Shown piece after piece: positions 1-44,554 of a stretch of 64,000 bases of DNA. The notes under the pieces are model-generated. The model was not told where the DNA came from. It saw only the letters and a program-made list of their open reading frames with translations, and made no database searches. The stretch is from Haliotis rufescens (taxonomy: Eukaryota), in contig NW_025963784.1 in the NCBI RefSeq assembly GCF_023055435.1, positions 806,001 through 870,000 on the forward strand. Direction: 5' to 3'. Made by a program: the position numbers and the translations under genes. Position 1 is the stretch's first letter; the number at the start of each line of letters is the position of its first letter.

Positions 1-897
1 CATTGCAACTCCACAGTGCTCTGACAAGGACCAGGCTGGTTGCAGTTCTCCCGTTCTTCTCCTTCCACTTTGTAAGCATGTGTACAACTTGCATATATAG
101 TGAACATGGATGTGCAAAAGTCACTTGTTCGATAACCACGAGAGTAAGTCCAAGTTCGATGCCAACAGACTCGAACCCGATCCCGATGTGACTTGCAACA
201 AGGCTGAGATCTCGTCCCGACACAGGAGTATCAAACATCTCTTCATTTACAGCATATGCATGGTTCAGGTGTCTTGGCCCTACAACATTAAACTCACAAT
301 ATGCATACTTTTTACATGTGCGTGTGTTTTGTGTAATATATTGGCTTTCAAATTACCCATTAATATTCTTAATTATCTTAACGTATCTTAATATCAAATC
401 CTCTCAAAAATCCAAGGACAAAACATATTGTTATTATACCACAATATATAATGAAAACATTCTGGGGTACACATAAAAACTGGGAATTATGCTAAGCTTT
501 GACCTGATGAATCATACCAAAACACACAATCCGTCTTTTGAATTCAATGAAACAATAAACATGATTGAATGTACCTCTCTGGACCAGCTGTGGGTTATAC
601 TGGCAGGTTATGGGGTTGTCTGTCTTGGATATTTTCTGGAATCAAAATACAATGAGACATATTCGTGAATACTCGCTGCATCAAAATATTTCCCTCAGTT
701 TAAAAACATGATTGACAGCCGTAAGTAGGGCAATCTTACATATATACATACATAAAAAAACAGGCGCGAATGGACGTGCACACGCGTGGACGCACATAAA
801 CATTGACACGCTGACATACCAAGACGGAAAACACGAGAAATGAGTCTTCACATACCTGATATTTAAATCCTGACCAGCATAAAATAATATTGCCCAT
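1..897 (-). CDS. Death-domain-only protein, copy DD1 (3 exons: 897-856, 635-575, 279-<1; runs off the window)
   Basis: GT-AG splice sites with phases 0 and 1 join in frame: MGNIILCWSGFKYQ|KISKTDNPITCQYNPQLVQR|GPRHLNHAYAVNEEMFDTPVSGRDLSLVASHIGIGFESVGIELGL...HMLTKWKEKNG. The pattern matches a CRADD/PIDD-like death domain. Confidence 0.8.
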
Positions 898-993
898 GCT
901 GCCTGTATCTAACACTCCAGAGAGAATGTGAAACACACAACCGGACCCCCTCAGTATCTGAGAAAATATGAAACTGTCGACTACACAACTGCC

Positions 994-1100
994 TTTATAT
1001 ATAGAAAGATGGGGATTCCCCTACTTGTTGACTGAGTTGTCGGGAAACTGTCCAGCTCCAAATGTTACTTACAATTGATCTCGGGCTGCGGATTTTCGGA
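994..1100 (-). promoter_or_regulatory. DD1 promoter: TATAAA (999-994), kB site GGGGATTCCCC (1011-1021), TCCGAAAATCCG (1100-1089)
   Basis: The motif order and spacing recur upstream of the other family members. Confidence 0.65.
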
Positions 1101-3898
1101 TTGTATCTGCCATTAAAAAATGTGGTGTGGGGGTCAGATGTTGGTGTTCGTGCAGCTTTGATGATCAAATAGTATGTTNNNNNNNNNNNNNNNNNNNNNN
1201 NNNNNNNNNNNNNNNNNNNNNNNNNNNNNNNNNNNNNNNNNNNNNNNNNNNNNNNNNNNNNNNNNNNNNNNNNNNNNNNNNNNNNNNNNNNNNNNNNNNN
1301 NNNNNNNNNNNNNNNNNNNNNNNNNNNNNNNNNNNNNNNNNNCAACTTCAAACATTACATGAAGATGTTTCTGCAAAATTCTTTTTTTAAAAAAGCACCA
1401 CATTGTATTATATCCAGGTAATACTTAATGGGACAAATCTTACGAGTTGAATGGGCTTGAAAACACGAAGAGCTACTGAAGAGAAGAGGAAAAATAGTGG
1501 TGGTGTGGATTGGCATACATGAGAAATGAGACAGTCATGTTGTTAACCAAAGTCTCGTCATGTTAGTGTGCACCAATACACTTAAATGTGTTTCCTTTTC
1601 AATAGTACATAATATAATATGAACATATACACATTAGCAGGTCATTTTGCGTTGAGAGCTCAATGGGATATAATAGCATAGCGAAGAACTTCACTTGAAC
1701 TGATTGCGAAGGCGGAACATTCTTCTGTTTAATTGACCTCGATGTGTACGTACAGCAGTTGAATCATCTCACATTTATTCCCGAAACATCAAGTTTTGAT
1801 AAAAGCGACATGCCTAATGATAAAGGAATATCTTCTAATATATCCTCCTGTTCAATTTAATGTACTGGTTACAAAGGAATATCTGCGAAATAATAAAGGA
1901 ATATGTGTTAATATATCCTCCTGTTCAATTTAATGTACTGGTTACAAAGAGGAATATCGAAAAATGGTTACAGTATAAAACAATGTCACATTATCCCAAA
2001 TAGACTCAACATAATATGTTTTAGATATGGTACTAATATAACAGTTGCTGAAGTGCGCATTGGTTATTGCAGAGCGTGTGTCGGATCTTAAATAACTGAC
2101 AATTGAATAACCATTTTGAAATGCATTAATATTTCTTAATGGAGTTGTGACATGTGAATAAATCCAGTTGGAACAGAGAACCTCTGATTGACTGCGTCGG
2201 ATTTTCGGACTAGCAACGTCACAATCGCCGCCGACAAGTAAACGTTATTATCGTCTCTTGTACCGGGACTCTGGCTTTCTTGAATGACTTGGCGATCGAC
2301 TTCGTCTGTCATTACTCTGAAGCGGAGATTTTTTTTATCGAAAATACAACGTGAATAGTATTCTATTTCAACAGGTTTCACAGTTATATAGCAAGCATTT
2401 TACATGAAGTAAAATGTTAAACTCCCGCTTTGGACATTGTTATTGAACCCCAGGGGTAAAAAGCACTCAACATCTACGTTATTGTTCCAGGATCTAATGG
2501 TGGTAACATGTGACATACATTAGTGTAGAAACAGTACAAACTATACAAACATCTCGTTCTAGTGATGTTTCAAAGTGAATGTCATGTGGACCAATATGCC
2601 TTCAGCTTCATGCTGGTAACGACATTTTGCAACAACAAATAGCTTACATCTTTTATTAATTTTGTGAAAGTGGTGGGTGCATCTGGTAGAGCATTACATG
2701 CTAATCATTCTGTGGAATTCCTGGTGTCATCACTGATTTTCAGTGATCCATTCCACTTTTCATCACTATTTTTGATCTTTTCTATGCATAAAAAAGTGAC
2801 AGTGTTTCAGGCTTCTCTATTATTGAGAACATGACTTGTATGTTTGTCATTCAAATTCTTTTTCAAGTTATTTGTAGAATGTAAGAGAGTATATTATTGA
2901 ATACATAAAATCGGATTTTCGAAACAACTAGATTTTTCACCCCTACAACTCTGTTGCAATGGTGCATAGAAATGAGTGCAGTCACTAATAGTCCAAATGT
3001 TTTATGGTAAAAGTGTAGAAGACTGGATAGGATAGCCATTTCCTTGTCTGTGACGGGTTCCACCAGTGGGACAGGATACCTTTTCGCGAACTTCTGGTAT
3101 CATCTCTGTTTGATTTCATACCTGAGAACCACTACAGCCCATGACCGGTATCGCAAACTTCCAACCAGGAAATCTTCTTACAAATAGATTACAGCTACAA
3201 TAGAAAGTAAAACACTGATTGTCGTCCATAATCAATCAGCAAGATTCTACGACCGGCAAACCCTTGTGAAATTGTTCAAAAGAAGAGACAACAGATAAAC
3301 AGTACACTTGGAACAACATAACACAAATAATTTGACTGTTCAATCGTGACCCGACATTGTAGAGTCAAATCATAATGTGAGACGCAATTATGTCTCCGGA
3401 TTTTCGGATAACGGATGACGTTTAGGCCACATGTATTCATCCCTCGCTAGTTCATCCTCAAATAAAAGAGACAGAAAGACAAGTTGTTACAAAAAGCATC
3501 ACAGCAATTTATTAAAAGCATTTATTCTCAACACACACACATAGAATCACAATGTATTACAAACGGAAAAGATATTACTGTTTAAATGAAGAGTGTTCAG
3601 TTTGCATCTTGAGGAAACAGAAAATCAATCAGATCAGTCAGGATTCCAAATTATGTACAAAAGTCTCAGTGAACCTAGCATCGCGACTCGATATTTCAAA
3701 ACGGGAACCCAATCAATCAAAGATAACTGTACATGAGAAGACTGTTCAGTGCAGCGCTAGTATATGAGAGAACATAAATGTAGGCATGATTTCTCTGTAT
3801 GTTGTCGGGGAAACTCAGTGACGATTACTTATATACCCACTCGTGTATTCACAGCGTAAAGCAAGACAGCGTCATGTGCATACAGCTCTCCGACTTGA

Positions 3899-4826
3899 TT
3901 ACACAGACACAGTGGACGGTCCCTGAAGGATGTTGAGAATGTCCTCCCACTCAATGGTACACCTGTCATTGCAACTCCACAGTGCTCTGACAAGGACCAG
4001 GCTGGTTGCAGTTCTCCCGTTCTTCTCCTTCCACTTTGTAAGCATGTGTACAACTTGCATGTATAGTGAACATGGATGTGCAAAAGTCACTTGTTCGATA
4101 ACCACGAGAGTAAGTCCAAGTTCGATGCCAACAGACTCGAACCCGATCCCGATGTGACTTGCAACAAGGCTGAGATCTCGTCCCGACACAGGAGTATCCA
4201 ACATCTCTTCATTTACAGCATATGCATGGTTCACATGTCTTGGCCCTACAACATTAAACTCACAATAAACTACCTATTTACTTGTGTACATTGTGTGTGA
4301 TAGATGTAACAACACTCAGTTCGCTTTCATTATTCTAAATTAGCCTCACTAAACAAAAACAAAAAATACGACCCGTCCATCAATTCATCCACTCATCCAT
4401 ATGGTAATGTGGAAAAAATCATTGTGGTACTCATAGAGCTATACTTCCTGAAATATAAGACAAACAGATCGTTTCAATTCAATGAAACTAAAAAAATTAA
4501 ACAATGTGTTCCAACGTACCTCTCTCTGCCGGGTCGCGTTTATAATGGCAATTTATCGAGTTCCCTGTGGTGGTCAGTCTCTGGAATCGAATAAACACAG
4601 TTTTAAACACGATTGATAGCTACACTATCATAGCAATGGATCATCTTACATAAACTAAACTAAACAAAACAATGCAATAACAAATGCACGTGTACACACG
4701 CCGACGCGCATTATAAACATTGATACCTTAACGTTCGAATCGGGAAAGAACATGAAATAAGCCTGTGGCTGTATATATATCCACCTGATATCGGAATCTT
4801 GACCAGCATGAAACATTATTACCCAT
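3899..4826 (-). CDS. Death-domain-only protein, copy DD2 (exons 4826-4785, 4580-4520, 4245-3899; 149 aa, intact)
   Basis: MGNNVSCWSRFRYQ|RLTTTGNSINCHYKRDPAER|GPRHVNHAY...VASHIGIGFESVGIELGL...MLTKWKEKNGRTATSLVLVRAL. Exon sizes 42/61/347 nt give an open frame. Minus-strand AATAAA signals lie at about 3508-3526. Confidence 0.85.
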
Positions 4827-4912
4827 GCTGTGAGTATCTATGCTTCTACTTCACACACGTGTATCCCACAGCCAGCTGACACAGTCTGATACTGTCGACG
4901 GTTCTGACAATC

Positions 4913-5017
4913 TTTATATTTGGTAGTAGCGTAAGAGGATTCCCCTGCCTTTGGTAGGGAATTGTCAGTCACAGGCAACTTACAAACGGTTTTGGGATCG
5001 CAGTTCGGATTTTAGGA
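4913..5017 (-). promoter_or_regulatory. DD2 promoter: TATA, kB-like GGGGAATCCT (4945-4936), TCCTAAAATCCG (5017-5006); identical in DD6 (~37266-37370)
   Basis: Positionally conserved with the DD1, DD3, DD4 and DD8 promoters. Confidence 0.55.
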
Positions 5018-8000
5018 TTTCATTCGCCATATCAGGATGATAGGCATGGGTAAAATACTTGTGCCGGTAGTATAAACACTTGCGTCAGTCGTGTGTTTAT
5101 AGCCTTTTAGAAGTTGGAAGAATGTGACAAAATGAAACGTGTTTGGATGACAACTTCTTGCCCGTTCATCGTGTGAGGATGCAGGTGAAAGGTGAAGAAG
5201 TAGTCCTCAAATGTCGTAGCAAACAATAGAGAAGTTGTGATCCATAAGAGTTTCACGTGTGTTTGGATCATACTTGCACGCAAGTCATACCGATACTTGT
5301 CTTTTCTGGGCCATCTGTCTTGTTCAGGTGCAGTAAATAATACACTTGTTTAAGTTTATTCAGTTAAATTGTTCATGTTGGCTTTCATCAGATCATCTGT
5401 AGATACGCGTGTTCTCATTTTCCTTATCATCAATACACGGTATGCAGAAACTGATCAAGACAAGAACCATTAAAACCATTTCATCACATTTCTTTTGATG
5501 TTACGATTATAAATGATTCTGTCTTCAGTCTATGTATTTTGGCAAGGATGTTCAAACAAAAACTTTTGCATACGATATATGTGTCTCAAAGCAATATTAC
5601 CAAGGAACATGATACGTATATACATCGGTAAGTGTTGGAAGCTTACGCCGTAATATGATCAATTAGATCAAACCGATCTACCACACTAAAATCATCGATC
5701 CGAAAATCCGACAAAATGTTATACATGTAAATACATGTCGCTAGAGGAGCTGTACATACCGGAATGTGTACATAGGAACAGTTATGTTGCTGTGCGGATA
5801 AGGATATGAGTTCGCGGGTAGTGTCAGTAGGGGGTGTATACGATTTTACGTGCTGAATGGGCTTGAAAATATGAAGAAGAAATAAGGGGAAATATGAGCA
5901 GTGATGTGGTTTGGTATATTGAGGAAATGATATAACATGTTGTCTACATTCACTTGTCTCATCATATAAGTGTGCATCATATAAGTGTGCACAAAACACT
6001 TGAACCTGTGTAGTTGTCAATAGTGCATAAGATAACCAGGCAGTGATCAATACGTAGTGTAAAATTGACTTCCGCCAGAATAGATATAAATGATGTCTCA
6101 CTGTGACATGAGTGCATAACGAAGAACTTCCTTTGAACTAATTGTCTAGTGGAACGTTCTACTGTTTGATTGATGTCGATGTGCATTGGGAAGCAGTTCA
6201 GTCACCTCGCATCTACTCCCGATATATCCCGCGAAGACTGAGGGATAATCTGTAGTTAAAATTCTGTTCATTATTATAAAAGGAATATCTGCTAAAACCT
6301 AATCTTCGTCAGCTGAAGAGGAATATGCAGAATGGTTATAGTATACAACAATGTACGATTATCCCAGATAAACTCAATATTTTATGGTCAATATATCGTA
6401 CCCACGTTACACAGAACAATTGTCAGATATTAAGTAATTGGTGATTGAATAAATTATACATTTGAACTATACATGGGACAGGTTTTTGGACCAATGAAGT
6501 GAAATTTTCCATTTACAAAGAAAATATTTTACCTTCTCGTGTACCCGGACACAAGCTTACTTGAATGGCTTGACGATCGACTACGTCGGGTTCGATTCTC
6601 AACATGACAATAACGTTTATGACAAGTTTGATGCGCTTGTGGTATGTGGACATAATAAATTAAAATGTTAAAAACCTTGGTATCACGACTGCATACAAAA
6701 TAGTGGTTACTTTTATTATTCTGTTTCGTGTGAGAATTATGCATCACCTGTAGTTTGTGGTACTCTGTTAAAGTTAAATTGTGTGTAAATAGTAAAGCGG
6801 GCGGTAAGACGTTTCAGGATTTTCGGATTTTCGGACTGTCGTGAAAAGGCTTATTGAAAAGAAATGCATGTCGTTACGAATATGTTCTGATTTCTGTTTA
6901 CAAACACTTGAATATTTTTTTATCATTGCTATCACTGTGAGGTGGAAGTATTATAAGCCTGCGGCTCGTGGTATTTAACATAGGGCCGGACGCATTAAAC
7001 CACATGAACCCCTCGTGGTACTGCTAAAACGAATTTATCTTACTGACATGTTACACTTGTTAAAGAATTGAAGCAAAATCAAAATTGATAGAAAACAGAT
7101 GTTCGATTGAGCTGAGGATAACTTGTGCTATGTCACGCGACTTTCACTGACTCGGAAAAAGCGTGCGGCTTTTTGCTTCGAAGCGGGGTTGAAGGGATTC
7201 ATTCTCCCGCTCAATGATCACGTGATGCCCGTCTTCTTCGTGGCGGGGTATAAGCGATTATTCTCCCGCTGAGACATTTATGTTCCACCCAGGCAGAATG
7301 CATAGAACTTTATCAAGATCACGTGAACTAATCATATATCAACATTCTGAAATGGAGATATGATGGAACAGAACAGAGAATAATTAGAAATATCTGCCAA
7401 ACGTAAAGCAGATTTTTCGAATCTGACTTATCATAAGTGTGTGTTATTTTATGCAGTGTCAACTTAACTCGGAGGAAAACTGTAGCGCATATCATTCACG
7501 TTTACCACTATGGCAGAACCTCCGATCATGGGTATGTTTCTAACAAACCAACCATCATAATCAGCACAAATCTGGGATTCGAACTCACAATCAAAAGATT
7601 TCGTCACGCTGATTATGTACAGCTATCTGCAACGCATCAGACTACTAAGACACCACCTTGAGTCGTGGAAATGAAATGTTGGATATGTGACAAATCATTT
7701 ATTTTTCGCATTACCGAGCTCAACACTGTAGTATATGTTCCTTCCGATTGAAGTTAACTGAAATATGATAAAACACAAGACTACGATCTTTCATTATTCT
7801 TTGTATATTTCTGAGCGATATTTCACAGATCTAATGGAATCCAAAGCATTCCGAATTTAGTATTTCATATTATTACACAGGCCAGACAGGGAGCGGAAAA
7901 ATCCCCCGATAGGTGTGATAACTATATATATTTGCTATACATGAAGGCAAATCACATAGCCACTTTTACCTCGACACATCTGATCGCTGTACAGGCGGGG

Positions 8001-8060
8001 TGATATCTATATCAAAATATCATGATTCCACCATTTATTGAATGTATATTATTACTGAGA

Positions 8061-9708
8061 TTACAGTGACTGCAGGATGTTGAGAATGTCTTCCCATTCA
8101 ATCGTGCATCTCTCTTTACATGTCCAGAGTGCTTTGACCAGGACCAGATAGGTGGCCGAACTGCCATTCCACTGCTTCCATTTCGTGAGCATAATCAAGA
8201 TCTGCATATACATTGAACATGGGTGTGCAACTCTGCCCTGTTGAATAGCCACAACGCTGAGCCCAAATTCAATCTCGACATACTCAAAGCCGATCCCGAT
8301 ATGTCTCGCAACAAGGCCGAGATCTCGTCTGGTCACTGAAGTCTTGAGTTTTCCGTCATCACAGTGTGCTGAACCTATATGACAAATACAAGAGACACAA
8401 AATGTTATTTAACGGCTGTAATTAGATGTAAGAATAAAATATTAGTTCCGGAGGGCTGTTATTCCGACAAAACAGTTTAAGAGAAAAAATAACTGAAATG
8501 ATAACATGTGCATGGGAACCTAAAACATATTACAGTAAAACAGTTAAAGAGAAATACAGGAAACCACAGTGGACAATCATGTATCAGCTTTACATACAGA
8601 GCATTTCTATATGGAGCCTGACCAATTCCAAAGAAGCCTGCCGAAATCTATATATGATTCAACGTTTCGCAAATCATTTGAAAGGCAATTCCAGACCCGG
8701 TGGCCTCACAAACAAACGCATTCAGCCAGAACATTGATGTTGTTACCAGGGGATTCTCAGCTGAGGGAGTTTGAAGGAGTTGGTTTGACTTCTGATTTCA
8801 TGAACACTTTTATATTTTATTGATATAACATATGTTTTGAATTAACCTAACTCACTTACCGAACTATATTATTAAACAGCTAAAAAAAACCAACCAGAAT
8901 ATTTCAGAACAAAATGCATTCATAAATCTTCAAAACAGATATTATGAGAAATGAGTAAAACAAACCTTTCTTTACGATCTGCTGAATACAAAGACAGGTC
9001 AGTTCGTTGTTTGTCAGCCTCTAGAATAGAAAGTACACACTAACAGTACACTAACAGTGTTAAGCTCACATGCTGGATCATTTCTGGACACGCATTGCAT
9101 TTTGCTTCATAGTCAAAGAGTGAGTGAGTGAGTTTGGTTTAAAGTCGCTTTTAACAGTATTCCAGTTATATCACAACGTGTCAGCTTAATGTGGGAGGAA
9201 AGCCCGAAGTGATGCAAGTTTAAGATGTTTACCTCTTCGGTGAAACCCAGGAGCGCGGTTATGGTGCTGACAAACCTAGAAACATAATAGGGGCCAACCC
9301 CGGATTCGGCGTGCCAAATGGACGCACCTCTGCACAGGCGCCTTAGACGACTGGGCCACCCGTGCCCCCTCATAGTCAAAGAAAACATTAATATTTCACC
9401 ATGCTCGACTTGATATTTTCATTCGTACGGAATGATAAACAATCTGCAGAGTCATGTTGACATTAAAATGATAACTGTGTAAACACCTCACTGGGCTGCT
9501 GACTATCACTGACATAGTCAATGGAAATATCAAAGAGTGTGGTCAATCCCGGTAAAATAACATCGAGTATGATGAATTTAGAATGCTATACTCTGAGGGT
9601 CGAGTGCTGTTCAAGTTTTACAAATTGCACATTTGTCATATAAACTAGAAAGTCGTTAAGGCGTACCTGATATTGAATTCCTGGGGAGCACGACAGAATG
9701 TTCCGCAT
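8061..9708 (-). CDS. Death-domain-only protein, copy DD3, divergent (exons 9708-9667, 9020-8966, 8374-8061; Gly2 replaced by Arg)
   Basis: MRNILSCSPGIQYQ|RLTNNELTCLCIQQIVKK|GSAHCDDGKLKTSVTRRDLGLVARHIGIGFEYVEIEFGL...MLTKWKQWNG. Canonical splice sites; the frame stays open. Confidence 0.7.
9120..9369 (-). mobile_element. tRNA-derived SINE (second family) with 13-bp TSD
   Basis: TSD TCATAGTCAAAGA at 9107-9119 and 9370-9382, and a (TCAC)n tail. Homologous to 28124-28400. Confidence 0.85.
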
Positions 9709-9797
9709 GCTATCTGTATCTCAATCTTTATGACACTTATGTTTCGCCTGAAATGATCTGACTGAATCGAGAACTGGCAGCTACACGTGAGCAAATT

Positions 9798-9878
9798 GGG
9801 GAATCCCCACCACAATATGAAACTACTACTTCTCTATCGTTCATGTTCGCTTCCAGCAAGGATCTTCGGATTTTCGGA
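9798..9878 (-). promoter_or_regulatory. DD3 promoter: kB site GGGGAATCCCC (9798-9808) and CGGATTTTCGGA (9867-9878)
   Basis: Both motifs are conserved although the flanking sequence is strongly diverged from the other copies. Confidence 0.6.
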
Positions 9879-11933: not shown

Positions 11934-13235
11934 TTAACCTGACTTAGTGGACGGTCCCTGAAGAATGTTCAGAATGTCTTCCCACTCAATAGTACATTTC
12001 TCGTTGCATCTCCACAGTGCTCTGACGAGGACCAGGCTGGTGGCAGATCTTCCATTCTTCTCCATCCACTTCGTAAGCATGTGTACAACCTGCATGTACA
12101 GTGAATTTGGGTGTGCAAACGAGACTTGTTCGATAACCACGAGAGTAAGTCCAAGTTCGATGCCGACACACTCAAACCCTATCCCTATGTGACTTGCAAC
12201 AAGGCTGAGATCTCTTTCAGATACAGGGATATTCAGCCTCTCTTCATTCACAGCATATGCTTGGCTTCAGGGTGTTGTATCTACAAGAATCATCTCACAA
12301 TAAGCATGTTCNNNNNNNNNNNNNNNNNNNNNNNNNNNNNNNNNNNNNNNNNNNNNNNNNNNNNNNNNNNNNNNNNNNNNNNNNNNNNNNNNNNNNNNNN
12401 NNNNNNNNNNNNNNNNNNNNNNNNNNNNNNNNNNNNNNNNNNNNNNNNNNNNNNCTGTCAATTCCCTATCAATATTCTACGTTATTTTAACTTATCTTAA
12501 GATTAAATTTACTCGAAAACCAAAAAGAAATACATATTGTTAATGTACCACAACGTATAAAGAAAACGTTTGGGTGGATGCACAGACAATGGAAATAATG
12601 TCAAGCTTGCATCTAATAAAGCATAACGTGACACACTATCCAAATCTTACATTTAGTAAAACGATAAATGCGACTGAACGTACCTCTCAGTTCGAGCTGG
12701 TGGTTATAATAGCAGGTTATGTGGTCGTCTGTCTTGGACATTTTCTGGAATCAAAATGAACACAGTGAGTGAGTGAGTGAGTGAGTATGGTTTTACGCCG
12801 CTTTTAGAAATATCCCAGCAATATCACGGCGGGGAACACCAGAAATGGGCTTCACACATTGTACCCATGTCGGGAATCGAACCCGGGTCTTCGGCGTGAC
12901 GAGCGAACGCTTTAACCACTAGGCTACCCGACCGCCCCAAATGAACACAATGAGGCATATTCCTGGTGACGCTTGGATCCCGCATATTGTAAACTTTAAA
13001 CCTATTTTAAACCACGATTGAGAACTGTAGCGTCACAAGAAGTCTGGTAATGTTACATACACTAGTATAGATAAACAAACATAAAGTCGCATTTGCACGT
13101 GTACACACGAGGACGCGCATAAACATTGATGAACAGTGACAAGCTAACATTCATTAATTGTTGGGAAAATACGTGAAGGGATTCTTTATTTACCTGATAT
13201 CTGAATCTTGACCAGTATGAACAAATATTACCCAT
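11934..13235 (-). pseudogene. Death-domain gene copy DD4 with premature stop (exons 13235-13194, 12744-12684, 12280-11934)
   Basis: MGNICSYWSRFRYQ|KMSKTDDHITCYYNHQLELR|DTTP* has TGA at 12269-12267, where paralogue DD8 has TGG. The death domain downstream is otherwise open. Confidence 0.75.
12765..12938 (-). mobile_element. tRNA-derived SINE, full length, with 11-bp TSD
   Basis: A box TAGCCTAGTGG, B box GGTTCGATTCC and (TCAC)n tail. TSD AAATGAACACA at 12754-12764 and 12939-12949. The empty site is at ~44151-44161. Confidence 0.9.
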
Positions 13236-13350
13236 GCTGCCTGTATCTATGACGTCTAGTGAGAAAATGAAACACACATGTGTATCCTTCAGTCGCCGCG
13301 ACTATATGACTCCTTAACAAAATTACATTAAACACATATAAATAGGGAAA

Positions 13351-13435
13351 GGGGATTCCCCCTACTTGCTGTGCGGGAAGTGTTGTATGCCACGTGAACA
13401 ATCTTGTTCCGGCTCTCGGACTGCGGATTTTAGGA
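13351..13435 (-). promoter_or_regulatory. DD4 promoter: kB site GGGGATTCCCC (13351-13361) and CGGATTTTAGGA (13424-13435)
   Basis: Positional conservation; the kB site is 116 bp upstream of the ATG. Confidence 0.6.
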
Positions 13436-17559: not shown

Positions 17560-17662
17560 GCCCCCCCCCACCCACCCCCCCCCACCCCCCCCCCACCCAC
17601 CCCACCCCCCCCCCCCCCCACCCACCCCACCCCCCCCCCCCCCCCCCCCCCACCCCCACCCC
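17560..17662 (+). repeat. Poly-C tract in exon 1 of copy A (frame-preserving, +87 nt relative to copy B)
   Basis: Copy B has GCCCCCGTCACACCCCAG (53064-53081) at this position. Confidence 0.8.
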
Positions 17663-25010: not shown

Positions 25011-25310
25011 TAAAGAAGAAACTGCTTTACAAAAAGCAGAGGCACAACATCACAATGATATTGCAAGGATTATAACTGAGGCAACAAATATACATGACCT
25101 GACAACCAACCATGGTACAATTATAGATAGGTAAGAGCAATGTGGAAATGATGCTTTAGTTGACAACCCAAACACATATATTGTATACGCTGTTTTGCAG
25201 AACAGTTTTGAAACCCTACGAAATCATATGAGACCTCGAAGAGGACAGTACCATCAGACATTTATCAAAATATCTATCATTTATCTAAGAATATAGACAG
25301 AGCATTTCTA

Positions 25311-25796
25311 TAAGGCCCCCCAAACAACATACTAAAAGTCCCAAATCAATCAATCAAATATGTCATGAGAGACCAACAGTGTATTGATATTGAATGTCTG
25401 TCCATGTCTTGGAGGTCATCTTGGAATTTTGGGCCAGTCAGTTAGTGTGACAAGTTTTATGCACATACGTCCAAGCACACTGTTTCAGATATAAATCTTC
25501 AACAGTCTAAACTCATATTTAGGAAAGTGTCGGCCATCTTGAAATTGCCGGCCATCTTGATGTTTTATAGATTTGTCAATAGTCGAAAACGATCAATAGT
25601 TGTGAATATCATTTTAAAACCATAATATGACTATTTTGCAACAGAACAAATGCTGTTTTTCATCAAAACATTGAACCTCATCTGAAATGTTGAAAATACT
25701 ATTGACAGTTTGTTGCCATATTGGATTATGTAAATTAGACATATTTCCCAAACTGGGATTGCTTGGGACTTTAAGTATGTTGTTTTGGGGACCTTG
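25311..25796. mobile_element. MITE / non-autonomous DNA transposon in the last intron
   Basis: TIRs of about 33 bp (AAGG(C/T)CCCCAAA(A)CAACATACT(A/T)AAAGTCCCAA) flanked by TA. An internally deleted paralogue lies at 62918-63191. Confidence 0.75.
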
Positions 25797-30028: not shown

Positions 30029-30070
30029 CCGATATCGAAATCCTGACAAGCATGACCTAATATTCCCCAT
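30029..30070 (-). pseudogene. Orphan exon 1 of the death-domain family (MGNIRSCLSGFRYR|GT)
   Basis: A 42-nt exon homologous to the other exon 1s, with a GT donor, TATAAA (30146-30141) and GGGGACTCCC (30165-30174) upstream. No recognisable death-domain exon was found downstream. Confidence 0.65.
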
Positions 30071-32497
30071 GATCATATCCCATCTACGAATCCGCAGCGT
30101 GTGATATTGTGACACAGTTAACACAACGTAGCCAGCCAAGTTTATACATGCAGGACTGATGGGAGGGGACTCCCTTGTACAATTTACCGGCACATTGTAA
30201 ATCTCAGACTTATGTAACCAACAAATTTCTGTCATTTCTCCAAATCACGGACTTCGGATTCTCGGCTGTGAATCGCCATGTCATTCGCCATTTTCATTCA
30301 TACTCAGTGGTTATAGGCTGCTAATCAAATCTTCTCAATGTCCACACCTCGTGGAGTAAGCTGTCTACTTCAGATGCCCTAAAAGCGTGTTTGATACCTG
30401 TGAAGATGAAGATGAAGCTCAGGTTGTAGAAAAAGGAGGTACGTTTTAACCACAAGTGACTAAAGTATTGAGACGAAAACCCTAAAATCGTGTGGGATAA
30501 CACACGATATGTTGATGTTGAGCAGTATAATCAGTCAATTGAAGTTATGGTGTATCAATTGCCTGAAATGACCATTGAATGAAATTAAAACACCCTTGAA
30601 ACATATATATATATATATATGTACTTAGTCAACATTGTTTTCCTAGTTTTCAAACTTCGGGCTTTCCTCACACATGGGGCTGACACGCAACGATATAACT
30701 GTAATACTGTTAAAAGTGGCGTTAAACCCAACTCACTCACTCACTCTTAGTTTTTAGAACAGAGCACAGAGGGATGAACTGGTGGCCAGTCTTGGCGACG
30801 ATGTAATAATTATTTATCTCACAATAATGTCTGTTGCAGGAAACAAATAACACCACGCGTCCATTGCGTGTGTGTTGATGGGCATTTATTGAAGTATTAG
30901 ATGCCACGAAACTCATGCAGTGATAAGACACGGCAAAACGACAATAATTTGCACGCAATATCCGTCCCTGGATGTCGCAACTAACAAGACTGAGAGGTAG
31001 TGCATGATGTACACCATAAATCCGAAAATCCGGAAATGTACAAATGACAGACAACAACTTCATACATTTCCTGAAGATTGTTCTGTAGAATGTCTCTTTC
31101 ACACAAATGAAATATAAAAGGACCACAGTGTATTATATCCTTTCTGGGATGCTGACAACAATAGCACATACTGTAAGGTATAGGTGGCTTTAACGGGGTT
31201 TATGGGATTTTACGAGTTGAATGGGCTTGAAAACGCGTAGAGCTACAGAAGAGGAAAAATAGCGGTGGTGTGGATTGGCATACTGGGGAAATAATACAAT
31301 CATAATGTTAACCAAAATAAACCGTTTCGTCATGTAAGTGTGCACCAATACATTTATATGTGTTTCCTTTTCAATAGTACAAAATATTATATGAACATAT
31401 ACACGTTAGCAGGTCAGTTTGCGTTGAGAGCTCAATGGGATATGAAAACATAGCTTCACTTGAACCAATTGTGAAGGCGGAATTCTACAGTTTAGTTGAC
31501 CTCGATGTGTGCGGGCAGCAGTTGAAAAAGCGACAGTAGTTCAGGCTTATCTATTATTGAGATCATGACTTGTATGTTTGTCATTCGAATTCTGTTTGAA
31601 GCTATTTGTAGAATGTAAGGGAGGATATTTTTGAATGTATGAATGTAGGATTTTCGAAACAACTAGTTTTGTCACCACTACAAATCTGTTGCAATGGTGC
31701 ATAGATATGAGTATTAACATATGTTTTCCGCCATCCCTTTGCAATAAGCAATCACTTTATCCTTCGCTAGTTGTCAAAATGTTTTATGGTACAAGTGTAA
31801 GGGACATTTCTGAATTTGATGCATCAGTGACAAAAATGAAGTCCGATGCAATTCCCTATTTTGACCATATGATCCGTGTTTGTTCTGGTGAAAACTGGAT
31901 AGCCATTTCAATGTATGCGATGGGTGCCACCAGTGGGATACGATACGGTCACCTGTTCTCGAGCTTCTGGTATTATCACTATTTGATTTATACATGAGAA
32001 CTACTACAGCCATTGACCTGAATGTGCAAAATTCCAAAAACGAAATATTCTTACATATAGAATTCAGCTGTTGTAAAACACTAATTGGCTTCCATAATAA
32101 TTCAGAAAGAAGATTCTACGACCGGCAACAGATCAACAGTACACTTGGAACAACTTTACAAAAAAAATCAACCGTGACCGGACATAGTAGAGGCAAATCA
32201 TTATGTGAGAGGCAATTATGTGTCCGGATTTTCGGAGAACGGATGACGTTTAGGGCACATCTATTCATCCCTCGTTAGTTCATTCTTAAATATCACAAGA
32301 GACAGAAAGACAAGTTGTTACAAAAGGCATCACAGCAATTTATTTATAACATTTATTCTTAAGACATACAAATAGAATCACAATGTATTACAAACGGAAA
32401 GGATAACACTGAAGAGTGTTCAGTGTGCAACTTAAGGAAACAGGACATTATTCAGATCAGTGAGGATACAAAGTTATGTACAGAAGCCTCAGTGAAC

Positions 32498-33272
32498 CGT
32501 ATGCAAACGTAACTCGTTCGATAAGTCCAAGTTCGATGCCGACAATCTCGAACCCGATCCCGATGTGACTTGCAACAAGGCTGAGATCTCTGTCAGATAC
32601 AGGGGTATCCAACATCTCTTCATTCACAGCATATGCTTGGTTCCAGTGTGTTGGCCCTATAACAGTCATCTCACAATAAGCATACTCTTTACATGTGCGT
32701 GTGTTTTGTGTAATATATTGGCTTTCAAATTACCCATTAATATTCTAAATTATCTTAACGTATCTTAATATCAAATTCTCTCAAAAATCCAATAACAAAA
32801 CATATTGTTATTATATCACAATATATAATGAAAACATTCTAGGGTACACATAAAAAATAGGAATTATGCTAATTTCGGACCTGATGAATCATACCAAAAC
32901 ACACAATCCGTCTATTAAAGTCAATGAAACAATAAATAGGATTAGACGTACCCCTCTGTGCCAGCTGTGGGTTATCATGGCAGGTTATGGGGTTGTCTGT
33001 CTTGGATATTTTCTGGAATCAAAACACAATGAGAAATATTCGTGAATACTCGCTGCATCAAAATATTTCCCTCAGTTTAAAAACACGATTGACAGCCGTA
33101 AGTAGGGCAATCTTACATATATACAAACATAAAAAACAGTCGCGAATGGACGTGCACACGCGTGGACGCGCATAAACATTGATACGCTGACATACCAACA
33201 AGGAAATTACGAGAAATGAATTTGACCTACCTGATATTTGAATCCTGACCAGCATAAAACAATATTGCTCAT
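32498..33272 (-). pseudogene. Death-domain gene copy DD5, truncated (exons 33272-33231, 33012-32952, 32656-~32498)
   Basis: Starts MSNIVLCWSGFKYQ (Gly2 to Ser). Exon 3 has a 12-nt deletion, and the C-terminal half of the domain is deleted into the 3'UTR. The kB site is degenerate. Confidence 0.8.
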
Positions 33273-36248: not shown

Positions 36249-37179
36249 TTACACAGACACAGTGGACGGTCCCTGAAGGATGTTGAGAATGTCCTCCCAC
36301 TCAATGGTACACCTGTCATTGCAACTCCACAGTGCTCTGACAAGGACCAGGCTGGTTGCAGTTCTCCCGTTCTTCTCCTTCCACTTTGTAGGCATGTGTA
36401 CAACTTGCATGTATAGTGAACATGGATGTGCAAAAGTCACTTGTTCGATAACCACGAGAGTAAGTCCAAGTTCGATGCCAACAGACTCGAACCCGATCCC
36501 GATGTGACTTGCAACAAGGCTGAGATCTCGTCCCGACACAGGAGTATCCAACATCTCTTCATTTACAGCATATGCATGGTTCAGGTGTCTTGGCCCTACA
36601 ACATTAAACTCACAATAAACTACCTATTTACTTGTGTACATTGTGTGTGATAGATGTAACAACACTCAGTTCGCTTTCATTATTCTAAATTAGCCTCACT
36701 AAACAAAAACAAAAAATACGACCCGTCCATCAATTCATCCACTCATCCATATGGTAATGTGGAAAAAATCATTGTGGTACTCATAGAGCTATACTTCCTC
36801 AAATATTATAAGACAAACAGATCGTTTCAATTCAATGAAACTAAAAAAATGAAACAATGTGTTCCAACGTACCTCTCTCTGCCGGGTCGCGTTTATAATG
36901 GCAATTTATCGAGTTCCCTGTGGTGGTCAGTCTCTGGAATCGAATAAACACAGTTTTAAACACAATTGATAGCTACACTATCATAGCAATGGATCATCTT
37001 ACATAAACTAAACTAAACAAAACAATGCAATAACAAATGCACGTGTACACACGCCGACGCGCATTATAAACATTGATACCTTAACGTTCGAATCGGGAAA
37101 GAACATGAAATAAGCCTGTGGCTGTATATATATCCACCTGATATCGGAATCTTGACCAGCATGAAACATTATTACCCAT
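36249..37179 (-). CDS. Death-domain-only protein, copy DD6 (exons 37179-37138, 36933-36873, 36595-36249; 149 aa)
   Basis: Near-identical to DD2, with MGNNVSC start. One Leu-to-Pro change (HMPTKW) falls in a conserved helix. Confidence 0.8.
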
Positions 37180-40100
37180 GCTGTGAGTATCTATGCTTCT
37201 ACTTCACACACGTGTATCCCACAGCCAGCTGACACAGTCTGATACTGTCGACGGTTCTGACAATCTTTATATTTGGTAGTAGCGTAAGAGGATTCCCCTG
37301 CCTTTGGTAGGGAATTGTCAGTCACAGGCAACTTACAACCGGTTTTGGGATCGCAGTTCGGATTTTAGGATTTCATTCGCCATATCAGGATGATAGGCAT
37401 GGGTAAAATACTTGTGCCGGTAGTATAAACACTTGCGTCAGTCGTGTGTTTATAGCCATTTAGAAGTTGGAAGAATGTGACAAAATGAAACGTGTTTGGA
37501 TGACAACTTCTTTCCCGTTCATCGTGTGAGGATGCAGGTGAAAGGTGAAGAAGTAGTCCTCAAATGTCGTAGCAAACAATAGAGAAGTTGTGATCCATAA
37601 GAGTTTCACGTGTGTTTGGATCATACTTTTCTGGGCCATCTGTCTTGTTCAGGTGCAGTAAATAATACACTTGTTTAAGTTTATTCAGTTAAATTGTTCA
37701 TGTTGGCTTTCATCAGATCATCTGTAGATACGCGTGTTCTCATTTTCCTTATCATCAATACACGGTATGCAGAAACTGATCAAGACAAGAACCATTAAAA
37801 CCATTTCATCACATTTCTTTTGATGTTACGATTATAAATGATTCTGTCTTCAGTCTATGTATTTTGGCAAGGATGTTCAAACAAAAACTTTTGCATATGA
37901 TATATGTGTCTCAAAGCAATATTACCAAGGAACATGATATGTATATACATCGGTAAGTGTTGGAAGCTTACGCCGTAATATGATTAATTAGATCAAATCG
38001 ATCTACTACACTAAAATCATCGATCCGAAAATCCGACAAAATGTTATACATGTAAATACATGTCGCTAGAGGAGCTGTACATACCGGAATGTGTACATAG
38101 GAACAGTTATGTTGCTGTGCGGATAAGGATATGAGTTCGCGGGTAGAGTCAGTAGGGGGTGTATACGATTTTACATGCTGAATGGGCTTGAAAATATGAA
38201 GAAGAAATGAGGGGAAATATGAGCAGTGATGTGGTTTGGTATATTGAGGAAATGATATAACATGTCGCTACATTTACATGTCTCATCATATAAGTGTGCA
38301 TCATATAAGTGTGCACAAAACACTTGAACTTGTGTAGTTGTCAATAGTGCATAAGATAACCAGGCAGTGATCAATACGTAGTGTAAAATTGACTTCCGCC
38401 AGAATAGGTATAAATGATGTCTCACTGTGACATGAGTGCATAACGAAGAACTTCCTTTGAACTAATTGTCTAGTGGAACGTTCTACTGTTTGATTGATGT
38501 CGATGTGCATGGGAAGCAGTTCAGTCACCTCGCATCTACTCCCGATATATACCGCGAAGACTGAGGGATCATCTGTAGTTAAAATTCTGTTCATTATTAT
38601 AAAAGGAATATCTGCTAAAACCTAATCTTCATCAGCTGAAGAGGAATATGCAGAATGGTTATAGTATACAACAATGTACGATTATCCCAGATAAACTCAA
38701 TATTTTATGGTTAATATATCGTACCCATCAGTGAGCATCAGAACAATTGTCAGATATTAAGTAATTGGTGATTGAATAAATTATACATTTGAATATACAT
38801 GGGACAGGTTTTTGGACCAATGAAGTGAAATTTTCCATTTACAAAGAAAATATTTTACCTTCTCGTGTACCCGGACACAGGCTTACTTGAATGGCTTGAC
38901 GATCGACTACGTCGGGTTCGATTCTCAACATGACAATAACGTTTATGACAAGTTTGATGCGCTTGTGGTATGTGGACATAATAAATTAAAATTAAAAACC
39001 TTGGTATCACGACTGCATACAAAATAGTGGTTACTTTTATTATTCTGTTTCGTGTGAGAATTACGCATCACCTGTAGTTTGTGGTACTCTGTTAAAGTTA
39101 AATTGTGTGTAAATAGTAAAGCGGGCGGTACGACGTTTCAGGACTTTCGGATTTTCGGACTGTCGTGAAAAGGCTTATTGAAAAGAAATGCATGTCGTTA
39201 CGAATATGTTCTGATTTCTGTTTACAAACACTTGAATATTTTTTTATCATTGCTATCACTGTGAGGTGGAAGTATTATAAGCCTGCGGCTCGTGGTATTT
39301 AACATAGGGCCGGACGCATTAAACCACATGAACCCCTCGTGGTACTGCTAAAACGAATTTATCTTACTGACATGTTACACTTGTTAAAGAATTGAAGCAA
39401 AATCAAAATTGATAGAAAACAGATGTTCGATTGAGCTGAGGATAACTTGTGCTATGTCACGCGACTTTCACTGACTCGGAAAAAGCGTGCGGCTTTTTGC
39501 TTCGAAGCGGGGTTGAAGGGATTCATTCTCCCGCTCAATGATCACGTGATGCCCGTCTTCTTCGTGGCGGGGTAAAAGCGACTATTCTCCCGCTGAGACA
39601 TTTATGTTCCACCCAGGCAGAATGCATAGTATTTTATCAAGATCACGTGAACTAATCATATATCAACATTCTGAAATGGAGATATGATGGAACAGAACAG
39701 AGAATAATTAGAAATATCTGTTAAACGTAAAGCAGATTTTTCGAATCTGACTTTATCATAAGTATGTGTTATTTTATGCAGTGTCAACTTAACTCGGAGG
39801 AAAACTGTAGCGCATATCATTCACGTTTACCACTATGGCAGAACCTCCGATCATGGGTATGTTTCTAACAAACCAACAATCATAATCAGCACAAATCTGG
39901 GATTCGAACTCACAATCATGGGATTTCGTCACGCTGATTATGTACAGCTATCTGCAACGCATCAGACTACTAAGACACCACCTTGAGTCGTGGAAATGAA
40001 GTGCTGGATATGTGACAAATCATTGTTGTTCGCATTACCGAGTTCATCACGGTAGTGTATGTTCCTTCCGATTGAAGTTAACTGAAATATGATAAAACAC

Positions 40101-40384
40101 AAGACTACGATCTTTCATTATTCTTTGTATATTTCTGAGCGATATTTCACAGATCTAATGGAATCCAAAGCATTCCGAATTTAGTATTTCATATTATTAC
40201 ACAGGCCAGACAGGGAGCGGAAAAATCCCCCGATAGGTGTGATAACTATATATATTTGCTATACATGAAGGCAAATCACATAGTCACTTTTACCTCGACA
40301 CATCTGATCGCTGTACAGGAGGGGTGATATCGATATCAAAATATCATGATTCCACCATTTATTGAATGTATATTATAACTGAGA

Positions 40385-41270
40385 TTACAGTGACTGCAGG
40401 ATGTGAGAATGTCTTCCCATTCAATCGTGCATCTCTCTTTACATGTCCAGAGTGCTTTGACCAGGACCAGATAGGTGGCCGAACTGCCATTCCACTGCTT
40501 CCATTTCGTGAGCATGGGTGTGCAACTCTGCCCTGTTGAATAGCCACAACGCTGAGCCCAAATTCAATCTCGACATACTCAAAGCCGATCCCGATATGTC
40601 TCGCAACAAGGCCGAGATCTCGTCTAGTCACTGAAGTCTTGAGTTTTCCGTCATCACAGTGTGATGAACCTATATGACAAATACAAGAGACACAAAATGT
40701 TATTTAACGGCTGTAATTAGATGTAAGAATGTAATATTAGTTCCGGAGAGCTGTTATTCCTACAAAACAGTTTAAGAGAAAAAATAACTGAAATGATAAC
40801 ATGGGCATGGGAAGCTAAAACATATCACAGTAAAACAGTTAAGGAGAAATACAGGAAACCACAGTGGACAATCATGTATCAGCTTTACATATAGAGCATT
40901 TCTATATGGAGCCTGACCAATTCCAAAGAAGCCTGCAGAAACCTATATATGATTCAACGTTTCGCAAATCATTTGAAAGGCAATTCCAGAACCGATGGCC
41001 TCACAAACAAACGCATTCAGCCAGAACATAGATGTTGTTACCCGGGGATTCGCAGCTGAGGGAGTTTGAAGGAGTTGGTTTGACTTCTGATTTCATGAAC
41101 ACTTATTGATATAGAATATGTTTTGAATTAACCTAACTCAGTTACCAAACTATATTATTAAACAGCTTAAAAACAAACTACCAGACAATTTCAGAAGAAA
41201 ATGTATTCATACAATCTTCGAAAGATATATAATGAAGAATGAGTAAAACAAACCTTTCTTAACGATCTGC
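40385..41270 (-). pseudogene. Death-domain gene copy DD7 (paralogue of DD3), inactivated
   Basis: 28-nt and 1-nt deletions in exon 3. A deletion of about 1 kb at ~41270 (equivalent to ~8982-9962) removes most of exon 2, exon 1 and the promoter. Confidence 0.8.
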
Positions 41271-43316
41271 TTTCAGCAGGTTTCCGTGAAAATGTTGAGC
41301 ATGTCCTGCTCTAGATCTACTTGGGAGGCCCGCCACTCCCACAAATTTACTGAAGTAAGTGTGCAATGTTCCTGCCACGACGTTGGCCTGAACATAATCG
41401 TTTCTAGACCAGTGATCATTATCATGAGCAATCGTGACCATCCCATCAATTCAAATGAGTCCTATTAGGAGGATTGAAACGTCCCTGTAATGTCATGGCA
41501 AGGGAAAGCCTCGCGCATGATGTTGACAAGCAGCGTGTTATGTTTGATAAAATCCTCTGAATGTCTACCATAAAATGGTGGAAATGACTTGAACAGGCCT
41601 TTGATGGTTCAACCTTACTTGAAATACTTAGTCCTATGAAAGTTATAAAATGTAAGAGGTTATATTGTTAAATATTGTACACATAAAATCGAATTGTTGC
41701 AGCCACTAGTTTTATCACCAATACAAATCTGTTTCTGTAGCGTAGAGATGCGAGAACAGTCACAATTGTATCAACACATGCATGCTTCGTCTTGGCGCCA
41801 ATCTCTTCCGTCATCCTTCTCAGTCTACAAGCAAAAGTGTTTTAAGTTTTACGGTAGGTGAAGAGGACATTTCCAAATTGGAAGCATCAGTGGCGATGAC
41901 GTGCGATGCAGTTTCCGATTTGGACCATATGAGCCCGTGTTTGTTCCCAGTGGATAACACTGGCTTTTCGCTTCGATGTGTTTAAGACGGTGCAACCAGT
42001 GGAACAGGACACGCTCATCTTTATGCTGACACTTGGTATCATAACTATGTGATAGTTATTAAAAAAATACATGATACTGTTATCGCTTTTCTTTTTATTT
42101 GTTAGATTTGTGAAGAAGAAAATAGGCATGACAATTTGTTCAATAATGACCGTTCGACTGAAATAATAAAATATAATATAAATTGTATGTCCGAGGCAAT
42201 GTTTTGCGACATAAGTACCTGCTTCTGTGATATAGGATTTGTGAATTATAACGACTGAAGAAAACATGGCAACAGTTGTCATTTGTTATCAGTCTAAACA
42301 AGCACCTGCAAACATATGCATAATAATTGTTCATATATCTAAAACAATATTTATTGTATATTAAGCCATAAGAACAACAGTAAATTTTGCATATTGTTAT
42401 TTACCAGGCTATATTTCGGTGTTGTTTAGATATTTTATGGGGTACTGGTTCATAAACATTGGTAGCATGTTTTAAGGAACATATTTATCTCACATATATT
42501 TATCCCACCCCATGCTGCATTGATGATGTGCATTTCTCTATAGATGTGATCACACACCACTGATGCTGCATAAGACGACCTGTCATAACCTGTCATCATT
42601 CCTGAGAACTACTACAGCCCATGACCAATATGTTTTATATACCAACCAGGAAATATCCTTACAAAAGGAATAGAGCTAATATATAATGTCAGAAAATAAT
42701 AGCGTCCTTAATGAATCAAAAACAATTCTACAACCGGCAAACCTTGTAATAGTGTTCAAAATCAGAGTCAACAGATAGACAGTACCCTTGAAATAACATT
42801 CTAAAAATATTTTTGAATTTTCAATCCTTAATACAGTCGGGACATTTGTTATGTGAGAGGCAATTATGTTCCCGGATTTTCGGACTACGGATGACGTTTA
42901 GAGCACAGCTTGTTATCCCTCGGTCACTGTTCCGCGAATATCACAAGAGGCAGAATGACCAGTTCTTACAAAGGACATCATAGCAGTTTATTAACATACA
43001 AATACAATCACAATGTATTATATACGGCAAATTAATGATAACTGTACATATGATGAGTGTTCAGTGCGCAACTTGCACGAGGAAGCAAAAATCATTCAGT
43101 TCAGTCATGATCCCAAATTGTGCACAGAAACCGAAGTGAATCTAGTATCGCGATTCGATATTTCAAAGCGGATGTTTCCTCTAAATGTGATTCGTACATG
43201 CAGGTGCATGGCTACGCAGAAATAGATGTTAGTCCCTGAAGCGTGTTGAGAATATCCTCCCAATCAATAAATCAGTGATAACTATACTTGAGAAGGATGT
43301 TCAGAGCAGCACTTTA

Positions 43317-44447
43317 TTAACCTGACATAGTGGACGGTCCCTGAAGAATGTTCAGAATGTCTTCCCACTCAATCGTACATTTCTCATTGCATCTCCACAG
43401 TGCTCTGACGAGGACCAGGCTGGTGGCAGATCTTCCATTCTTCTCCTTCCACTTCGTAAGCATGTGTACAACCTGCATGTACAGTGAATATGGGCGTGCA
43501 AACGTGACTTGTTCGATAACCACGAGAGTAAGTCCAAGTTCGATGCCGACACACTCAAACCCGATCCCAATGTGACTTGCAACAAGGCTGATATCTCTTT
43601 CAGATACAGGGATATTCAGCCTCTCTTCATTCACAGCATATGCTTGGTTCCAGGGTGTTGTACCTACAAGAACCATTCACAATAAGCATGTACNNNNNNN
43701 NNNNNNNNNNNNNNNNNNNNNNNNNNNNNNNNNNNNNNNNNNNNNNNNNNNNNNNNNNNNNNNNNNNNNNNNNNNNNNNNNNNNNNNNNNNNNNNNNNNN
43801 NNNNNNNNNNNNNNNNNNNNNNNNNNNNNNNNNNNNNNNNNNNNNNNNNNNNNNNNNNNNNNNNNNNNNNNNNNNNNNNNNNNNNNNNNNNNNNNNNNNN
43901 NNNNNNNNCAATTTTCCCTATCAATATTCTACGTTATTTTAACTTATCTTAAGATTAAATTCACTCACTTGTGGATGCACAAACAATGGGAATAATGTCA
44001 AGCTTGCATCTGATAAAGCATAACGTGACACACAATCCATATCTTACATTTAGTAAAACGATTAATGCGACTGAACGTACCTCTCAGTTCAAGCTGATGG
44101 TTATAATAGCAGGTAATGTGGTCGTCTGTCTTGGACATTTTCTGGAATCAAAATGAACACAATGAGGCATATTCCTGGTGACGCTTGGATCCCGCATATT
44201 GTAAACTTTATACCTGTTTTAAACCACGATTGAGAACTGTAGCATCACAAGAAGTAGGGTAATGTTACATACACTAGTATACAAAAATAAACATAAAGTC
44301 GCAATTGCACGTGTACACACGAGGACGCGCATAAACACTGATGAACAGTGTCACGCTGACATTCATTAATTTTAGGGAAAATACGTGAAGGGAATCTTCA
44401 CCTACCTGATATCTGAATCTTGACCAGTATGCAACAATATTACCCAT
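43317..44447 (-). CDS. Death-domain-only protein, copy DD8 (exons 44447-44406, 44141-44081, 43663-43317; 149 aa, intact)
   Basis: MGNIVAYWSRFRYQ|KMSKTDDHITCYYNHQLELR|GTTPWNQAYAVNEERLNIPVSERDISLVASHIGIGFECVGIELGL... Open frame with canonical splice sites. Confidence 0.85.
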
Positions 44448-44554
44448 GCTGCCTATATCTACGACGTCTCGTGAGAAAATGAAACACACATGTGTATCCC
44501 TCAGTCGCCGCGACAACTGTGCACAACTACTTTTAACACCTATGAATAGGGAAA

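Follow-up and report, generated by a model that had tools for sequence, protein, structure and literature searches.

Predicted membrane-anchored, CARD-less death-domain proteins of CRADD type encoded by a duplicated gene cluster with kappaB-type promoter sites in the abalone Haliotis rufescens

The 64,000-nt stretch of Haliotis rufescens contig NW_025963784.1 analyzed here (positions 806,001 to 870,000, hereafter the window) contains a cluster of short genes composed of two small leader exons and one exon encoding a death domain (DD). The favored reading, to which we give a probability of roughly 45%, is that their products are NF-kappaB-induced, membrane-tethered decoys of CRADD type, devoid of the CARD and damping the signaling of death-domain adaptors. 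According to this scheme, Rel would induce the DD genes, the initiating Met would be removed and Gly2 myristoylated, while palmitoylation of Cys7 and/or residues Trp8, Phe11, and Tyr13 with the patch of +2/+3 charge would supply the second anchor. The product of exon 2 would then act as a spacer between the anchor and the DD, the DD would join complexes formed at the membrane by CRADD-like CARD-DD adaptors or by other DD proteins, and the missing CARD would halt the relay to caspases. The likely outcome is a set of infection-induced decoys at membranes. A first-pass annotation of the window had supposed that these proteins could nucleate or cap death-domain filaments; the type of the DD (CRADD) and the kappaB site in the promoter tilt this idea towards an inducible decoy.

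Exon 1 copies were searched on both strands of the window using the pattern ATG-N33-TATC[AG]G-GT, giving eight matches, every one on the minus strand (starts at 897, 4826, 9708 (MRN), 13235, 30070, 33272 (MSN), 37179, and 44447). All six N-termini quoted in the first-pass annotation were found at their coordinates on this strand, each in a 42-nt exon running from ATG to CAG or CGG and followed by GT, and exon 2 takes 61 nt in all models except DD3 (55 nt at 8966-9020). For the seven three-exon models, 14 of 14 donors and 14 of 14 acceptors, that is 28 of 28 borders, follow the GT/AG rule with the frame kept, in agreement with the in-frame structure proposed earlier. The exons are as follows:

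1..279, minus strand: DD1 exon 3, death domain, ends at the window edge (127 codons in all); 98% identical to DD2 exon 3
575..635, minus strand: DD1 exon 2, 61 nt
856..897, minus strand: DD1 exon 1 (MGNIILC...; Gly2-Asn3, Leu6, Cys7)
3899..4245, minus strand: DD2 exon 3, death domain, 149-aa product; Pfam Death 25 bits; contig of run X1 ends at 4245
4520..4580, minus strand: DD2 exon 2, 61 nt
4785..4826, minus strand: DD2 exon 1 (MGNNVSC...)
8061..8374, minus strand: DD3 exon 3, divergent death domain, 136-aa open product
8966..9020, minus strand: DD3 exon 2, 55 nt
9667..9708, minus strand: DD3 exon 1 (MRN; without Gly2 and Trp8)
11934..12280, minus strand: DD4 exon 3, in-frame TGA at codon 39 (12267-12269)
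12684..12744, minus strand: DD4 exon 2, 61 nt
13194..13235, minus strand: DD4 exon 1 (MGNICSY...)
30029..30070, minus strand: orphan exon 1 (MGNIRSC...), with neither exon 2 nor DD exon downstream
32457..32656, minus strand: DD5 exon 3, truncated death domain, 100-aa product
32952..33012, minus strand: DD5 exon 2, 61 nt
33231..33272, minus strand: DD5 exon 1 (MSN; without Gly2)
36249..36595, minus strand: DD2b exon 3, 149-aa product, Leu-to-Pro in a DD helix; Pfam 16.7 bits
36873..36933, minus strand: DD2b exon 2, 61 nt
37138..37179, minus strand: DD2b exon 1 (MGNNVSC...), identical to DD2 exon 1
40385..40669, minus strand: DD3b remnant, exon 3 with 28-nt and 1-nt deletions
43317..43663, minus strand: DD4b exon 3, death domain, 149-aa product
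44081..44141, minus strand: DD4b exon 2, 61 nt, containing Met16, the start of RefSeq model P0002
44406..44447, minus strand: DD4b exon 1 (MGNIVAY...; Ala6, residues 2-8 without Cys)

The size of about 149 aa ascribed to all six proteins stands for those starting at 4826 (DD2), 37179 (DD2b), and 44447 (DD4b); it is ruled out for 13235 by the premature stop and for 30070 as an orphan exon, and the product of 897 is cut by the window edge. Gly2 coexists with an open DD frame in DD2, DD2b, and DD4b, plus DD1 as far as visible before this edge. The loss of Gly2 reported for DD3 and for broken DD5 is confirmed. DD4 is likely a null copy. For the exon at 30070, which has an in-frame ATG 6 nt upstream, neither exon 2 nor a DD exon was found between 30070 and 13300 by tblastn and blastn, and its parental gene was probably severed at the duplication junction. 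In DD3b, exon 1 and most of exon 2 are gone at a breakpoint near 41271.

The assignment of exon 3 to death domains relies on profile and structural comparisons. Pfam Death (PF00531), the check suggested at first pass, is matched by five of the seven DD-exon open reading frames (ORFs) scanned, three exceeding the curated cut-off of 22.6 bits (DD4, 25.6; DD2, 25.0; DD4b, 23.1) and two lying below it (DD3, 19.2; DD2b, 16.7), while the same scan gave no match for DD5 and DD3b. The structure predicted for family protein P0001 is a six-helix death fold, confident over residues ~45-142 (predicted local distance difference test, pLDDT, >90 for 92 residues), with a low-confidence leader; its best structural match is the RAIDD DD (template-modeling score 0.87 by target, 1.7 A, E 1.3e-4), the sole one at ≤0.001 among 285. 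Searching PDB with a profile of the family plus relatives put the CRADD DD first (E 4e-21; next protein 4e-13), and ESM Atlas returned generic DD clusters only. Residues 37-146, corresponding to exon 3, align at 99.7% probability with CARD-DD proteins, over the linker and the DD and up to the C-terminus, the aligned proteins being those of H. asinina, Patella, Nucella, and Elysia, named gastropod CRADD-like. Since exon 3 corresponds to the linker and DD of CARD-DD adaptors, the leader likely took the place of the CARD of a CRADD-like adaptor. Death was the sole domain found in six family proteins and a local CARD profile matched none of P0001-P0014, and the DD-only architecture stated by the first-pass annotation holds; neither were hydrophobic segments outside the DD detected in family proteins, nor longer fused forms among 8000 candidates in what was a weak search. 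Related DDs occur also at the ends of Roco proteins. Between paralogs, the DD is under purifying selection (pN, the proportion of nonsynonymous differences, 0.04; pS, that of synonymous ones, 0.27-0.29; pN/pS ~0.15), and exon 2, where pN is close to pS, is not.

The leader presents a different pattern of conservation. Exon 1 of DD2 (4826) shares 81-90% identity with those of DD1, DD4, and DD4b (897, 13235, and 44447) versus 49-55% over the 60 nt upstream, 34-52% in intron 1, and 59-64% in exon 2, while Gly2 is specified by GGC, GGT, and GGG among window copies. Being better conserved than both its flanks and exon 2, with Gly2 kept by three synonymous codons, exon 1 is constrained. Comparison of 16 leaders (eight from the window and eight from databases) revealed Asn3 in all of them, Gly2 in 14 (six of eight within the window), Cys among residues 2-8 in 14, and Ser6 in eight, seven of which have Gly2 (four of the six Gly2 window copies and three of the eight database leaders). 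The M-G-x-x-x-S consensus put forward earlier thus fits four of the six N-termini and fails at 897 (Leu6) and 44447 (Ala6); as a family motif it was rejected, the invariant element being Met-Gly-Asn. Asn or Gln at position 3 is described as allowing myristoylation without Ser6 (PMC4736023, citing Utsumi 2001), and the predicted myristoylation of Gly2 would likely proceed via Gly2-Asn3 rather than Ser6. In the part of this source considered here, myristate alone is characterized as a weak membrane binder needing a second signal, and sperm hexokinase exemplifies a dual acylation signal gained from a swapped N-terminal exon (PMC4736023). The first 20 residues carry a net charge of +2 to +3 (+1 in DD3), with Trp8, Phe11, and Tyr13, and exon 2 encodes 20 near-neutral residues. 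DD1, DD2, and DD2b possess an nt-3 / G+4 start context, and the 130 nt before their start codons contain no other ATG. The start codons of DD4 and DD4b come after short upstream ORFs (13236-13340 and 44448-44495, respectively, minus strand), none being present in DD1, DD2, DD3, and DD5. Among the relatives compared, the MGN leader was found in Haliotis alone, and starts with MG account for 0 of 51 short Met-starting and 2 of 39 long distant DD relatives; since a gene call confined to a single exon would miss a leader, and many of the short rows may be of this kind, this restriction to Haliotis is tentative.

Further evidence comes from promoter regions, on which the first-pass annotation had not remarked. 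A kappaB consensus gave 20 strand-matches at seven places of the window versus 3.6 expected, and 0 of 100 shuffles reached 20; five of the seven places lie upstream of an exon 1, and the remaining two are inside the retroelement at 45329-48543. The kappaB-type 11-mers are located 100-126 nt before the ATG, followed by a TATA-like box in five of eight cases, and are kept in promoters otherwise diverged. The 11-mer is perfect in DD1, DD3, DD4, and DD4b and has one mismatch in DD2 and DD2b, two in the orphan, and three in DD5:

1011..1021: DD1, perfect kappaB-type site
4935..4945: DD2, kappaB-like site with 1 mismatch
9798..9808: DD3, perfect kappaB-type site
13351..13361: DD4, perfect kappaB-type site
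30165..30174: orphan exon, kappaB consensus match
33388-33398: DD5, kappaB site with 3 mismatches, the most decayed one (broken MSN copy)
44555..44565: DD4b, perfect kappaB-type site

A Rel homologue is reported in abalone (PMC11103948), and induction of the DD genes by Rel/NF-kappaB is likely, as judged from these motifs. Upstream regions contain one more recurrent element, the 12-nt motif TCCGAAAATCCG, found 26 times in the window with ≤1 mismatch versus 0.06 expected (for example at 1089-1100, 5006-5017, 9867-9878, 13424-13435, 33466-33477, 37359-37370, and 44645-44656). Seven of the eight exon 1 copies have it ~160-210 nt upstream, and the orphan is preceded by a variant of it; the motif occurs elsewhere too and could be either a transcription-factor site, its GAAA core recalling IRF elements, or the end of a repeat.

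Exon 1 had been described as hidden, and this is not the case for the databases. The exon 3 ORF used as a query retrieved Haliotis proteins only, and among 14 family proteins, all of them predicted XP_ models, ten begin with MGN (H. cracherodii, H. rubra, and H. rufescens), one (H. asinina) has this motif internally after a 59-aa extension, and three (P0002, P0006, and P0014) are leaderless, P0002 of H. rufescens being identical to DD4b residues 16-149 and starting at Met16. The open-access literature, to which the search was confined with subscription journals outside its scope, yielded among the papers listed no description of this family or of myristoylated DD-only mollusc proteins. The gene models are already known and each ingredient has a precedent, while their combination appears undescribed. 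Splicing was followed in read contigs from four of the 24 listed runs, covering 1343-12311, with DD1 and DD4 exons 1-2 outside this range and the RNA status of the runs guessed. The junction check proposed earlier found partial support at predicted exon 3 acceptors, where three contigs from a single sample stop: a contig of run X1 ends at 4245, the predicted DD2 acceptor, with 67 letters beyond it unaligned, and contigs of X1 and X3, originating from one sample, end at 12279, which falls within the DD4 exon by one base (acceptor at 12280).

Several observations weigh against inducible, membrane-tethered decoys. The exon 1-exon 2 joint is absent among the 15 listed of 136 joints, and contigs of run X2 continue through DD2 intron 2. 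The kappaB sites belong to paralogous promoters and are not independent. Ser6 and Cys7 are both variable, and DD4b has neither. DD3 is without Gly2 although its frame is open and its kappaB site perfect, implying that anchoring is dispensable in some copies. Three of the 14 database models, P0002 among them, are leaderless. The careful tree of 34 hand-picked rows, which followed a quick one of 82/117 rows, supports the family at 99/99 and places it in an unstarred 20-row group (90/85) together with three of seven CARD-DD rows and none of seven Roco rows, no sister group being resolved; the label "DZIP-DD" in this tree is our presumption. At last, domain-only CARD16 is reported to promote caspase-1 assembly (PMC4420773). 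A complex predicted from the H. asinina family DD and the H. asinina CARD-DD domain (3+3 copies) scored 0.22 with a mark of 0.34 and counts neither way.

Part of these facts would also suit DD-only regulators whose lipid anchor does not work, or whose transcripts in many cases start so that translation begins at Met16 of exon 2, resulting in soluble decoys. The leaderless models and DD3 are compatible with it, as are the short upstream ORFs before DD4 and DD4b and the Leu or Phe at position 6 of five of the 16 leaders, residues which fail the PROSITE-type myristoylation pattern. We consider it unlikely given that Gly2-Asn3 is retained over four species despite synonymous codon change, that exon 1 is conserved above its flanks and exon 2, and that 10 of the 14 models start with MG.

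Turning the same architecture to the opposite sign, the acylated DD may be an activator, which, being concentrated at the membrane, seeds the assembly of soluble CARD-DD adaptors and gives them an anchor in trans, kappaB induction priming the pathway. In the strongest form, the DD substitutes for the transmembrane (TM) anchor of MAVS. Oyster MAVS is described as CARD-DD-TM, with the TM segment required to bind RIG-I CARDs (PMC5557890), the cited part of PMC11103948 reports that no MAVS was found in five abalone proteomes, and abalone CARD-DD proteins are free of hydrophobic segments, one of them (P0024) also matching the CARD_2 model. PIDD, the mammalian CRADD nucleator, is listed as not found in lophotrochozoans in the relevant section of PMC11463336, and CARD16 offers a precedent for activation. 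Nevertheless, many broken copies and fast turnover would better suit tunable inhibitors than a core adaptor, and Aplysia, according to the cited portion of PMC9334734, likewise has no MAVS, yet the MGN leader is seen in Haliotis alone. Activation is somewhat doubtful, though the best placed of the alternatives. Its extension to a split membrane adaptor of abalone, where the induced acylated DD would anchor soluble CARD-DD adaptors in trans, replacing oyster MAVS or mammalian PIDD, with swappable leader exons choosing the membrane, is highly improbable.

Self-comparison of the window revealed two copies, tandem or belonging to two haplotypes, of a ~32-kb block, matching over 1343-8983 and 33706-41271 (97.1% identity), 9960-12309 and 41274-43691 (90.5%), and 17657-25005 and 53074-60434 (93.3%). 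In each block the DD genes lie on the minus strand, and the plus strand carries an ankyrin-repeat gene. The cluster may alternatively be regarded as a region of little function, made up mostly of decaying duplicates or doubled by the assembly: four of the nine gene remnants are broken or partial (DD4, DD5, DD3b, and 30070), the two blocks are 90-97% identical, and identical proteins are found on two contigs in H. rufescens. This is quite improbable in view of the pN/pS of the DD between paralogs, intact relatives in four species, the conserved promoter motifs, and contigs of runs guessed to be RNA ending at exon borders. Exchange between copies is evident from the segment 1-320 compared to 3967-4286: exon 3 of DD1 and that of DD2 share 96.6-98% identity, whereas upstream, intron, and exon 2 sequences of these genes are just 52-64% identical, and the 5' half of DD1 is 91-93% identical to that of DD5. 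Near-identical exons 3 behind diverged 5' parts imply recent exchange of the DD between leaders, and the DD1/DD2/DD5 mosaic suggests that gene conversion or an unequal crossing-over took place close to the exon 3 acceptor.

Other elements of the locus are as follows. The multi-exon ankyrin-repeat gene is duplicated (18459-26847 and 53878-64000, plus strand) and positioned head to head with the DD cluster; the repeat arrays of the two copies differ in length (~1.6 and 3.5 kb), and the upstream exons contain a catalytic motif resembling that of Ulp1/C48 proteases, weakly supported by Pfam (E 0.1). The retroelement at 45329-48543 (plus strand), present in the second block only, includes overlapping gag-like, reverse transcriptase (RVT_1, E 4e-14), and GDSL-like ORFs, and we take it to be DIRS-like from its layout. 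Intron 1 has 449 nt in DD4 versus 264 nt in DD4b, and the former carries a tRNA-like sequence (12862-12933, minus strand; 30.1 bits), the sole Rfam match, which is likely an insertion of a short interspersed nuclear element. A high-copy repeat resembling this element is situated at ~9118-9369 in DD3 intron 1. The 3' regions of DD4 and DD4b each hold a 37-nt duplicate of the DD-exon end (11849-11885 and 43232-43268, minus strand).

Among known systems, CRADD/RAIDD (PDB 2o71, 2of5) and its gastropod CRADD-like counterparts are the closest, matching the abalone DD best by both profile and structure, and differ in that the abalone proteins have no CARD, its place being taken by a leader of 34 aa predicted to carry an acylation signal. 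TRAM/TICAM2 is a myristoylated single-domain immune adaptor that places signaling on the membrane, having a TIR domain and serving as a positive bridging adaptor. ARC/NOL3 is a single gene with a Pro/Glu-rich tail. Its product, a death-fold apoptosis repressor, is also N-myristoylated (PMC10752898, PMC4200515); it is CARD-based and showed no homology to the abalone family in any search made. CARD16/17/18 and POP1/2, the CARD-only and pyrin-only proteins (COPs and POPs), share with the abalone family a single death-fold domain, lineage restriction, birth by duplication, and the name of decoys (PMC3775265); COPs are noted to adjoin one another on one chromosome arm (PMC3775265), and domain-only paralogs are treated as decoys in mammals (PMC3775265, PMC4915194). 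The abalone proteins differ by a DD in place of CARD or PYD, molluscan origin, and extra leader exons, and a decoy role is suggested for them by analogy. Oyster MAVS (CARD-DD-TM) likewise puts a molluscan DD at the membrane (PMC5557890), and does so by a C-terminal TM anchor with the CARD in the same chain, both missing here. The Haliotis RefSeq entries named "death domain-containing protein CRADD-like" or uncharacterized LOC belong to the same family, their names being silent on acylation or function. No study of CARD-less, DD-only forms of CRADD type was found in the open-access literature, and one survey is stated to have dropped matches without the usual domains (PMC11463336). The cited part of that survey proposes CRADD as the only activator of CARD caspases in molluscs, with APAF-1 and PIDD absent (PMC11463336).

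As the gene models are already in databases, the gain lies in their interpretation. If it is true, abalone would have independently evolved inducible domain-only regulators similar to primate COPs and POPs, in this case for death domains, with the lipid anchor acquired by exon replacement. The family would offer a small testable entry to molluscan CRADD/caspase-2 signaling, which goes without APAF-1 and PIDD, and to abalone immunity, reportedly devoid of MAVS, and an immune cluster with variable copy number could be relevant to how farmed and endangered Haliotis resist disease.

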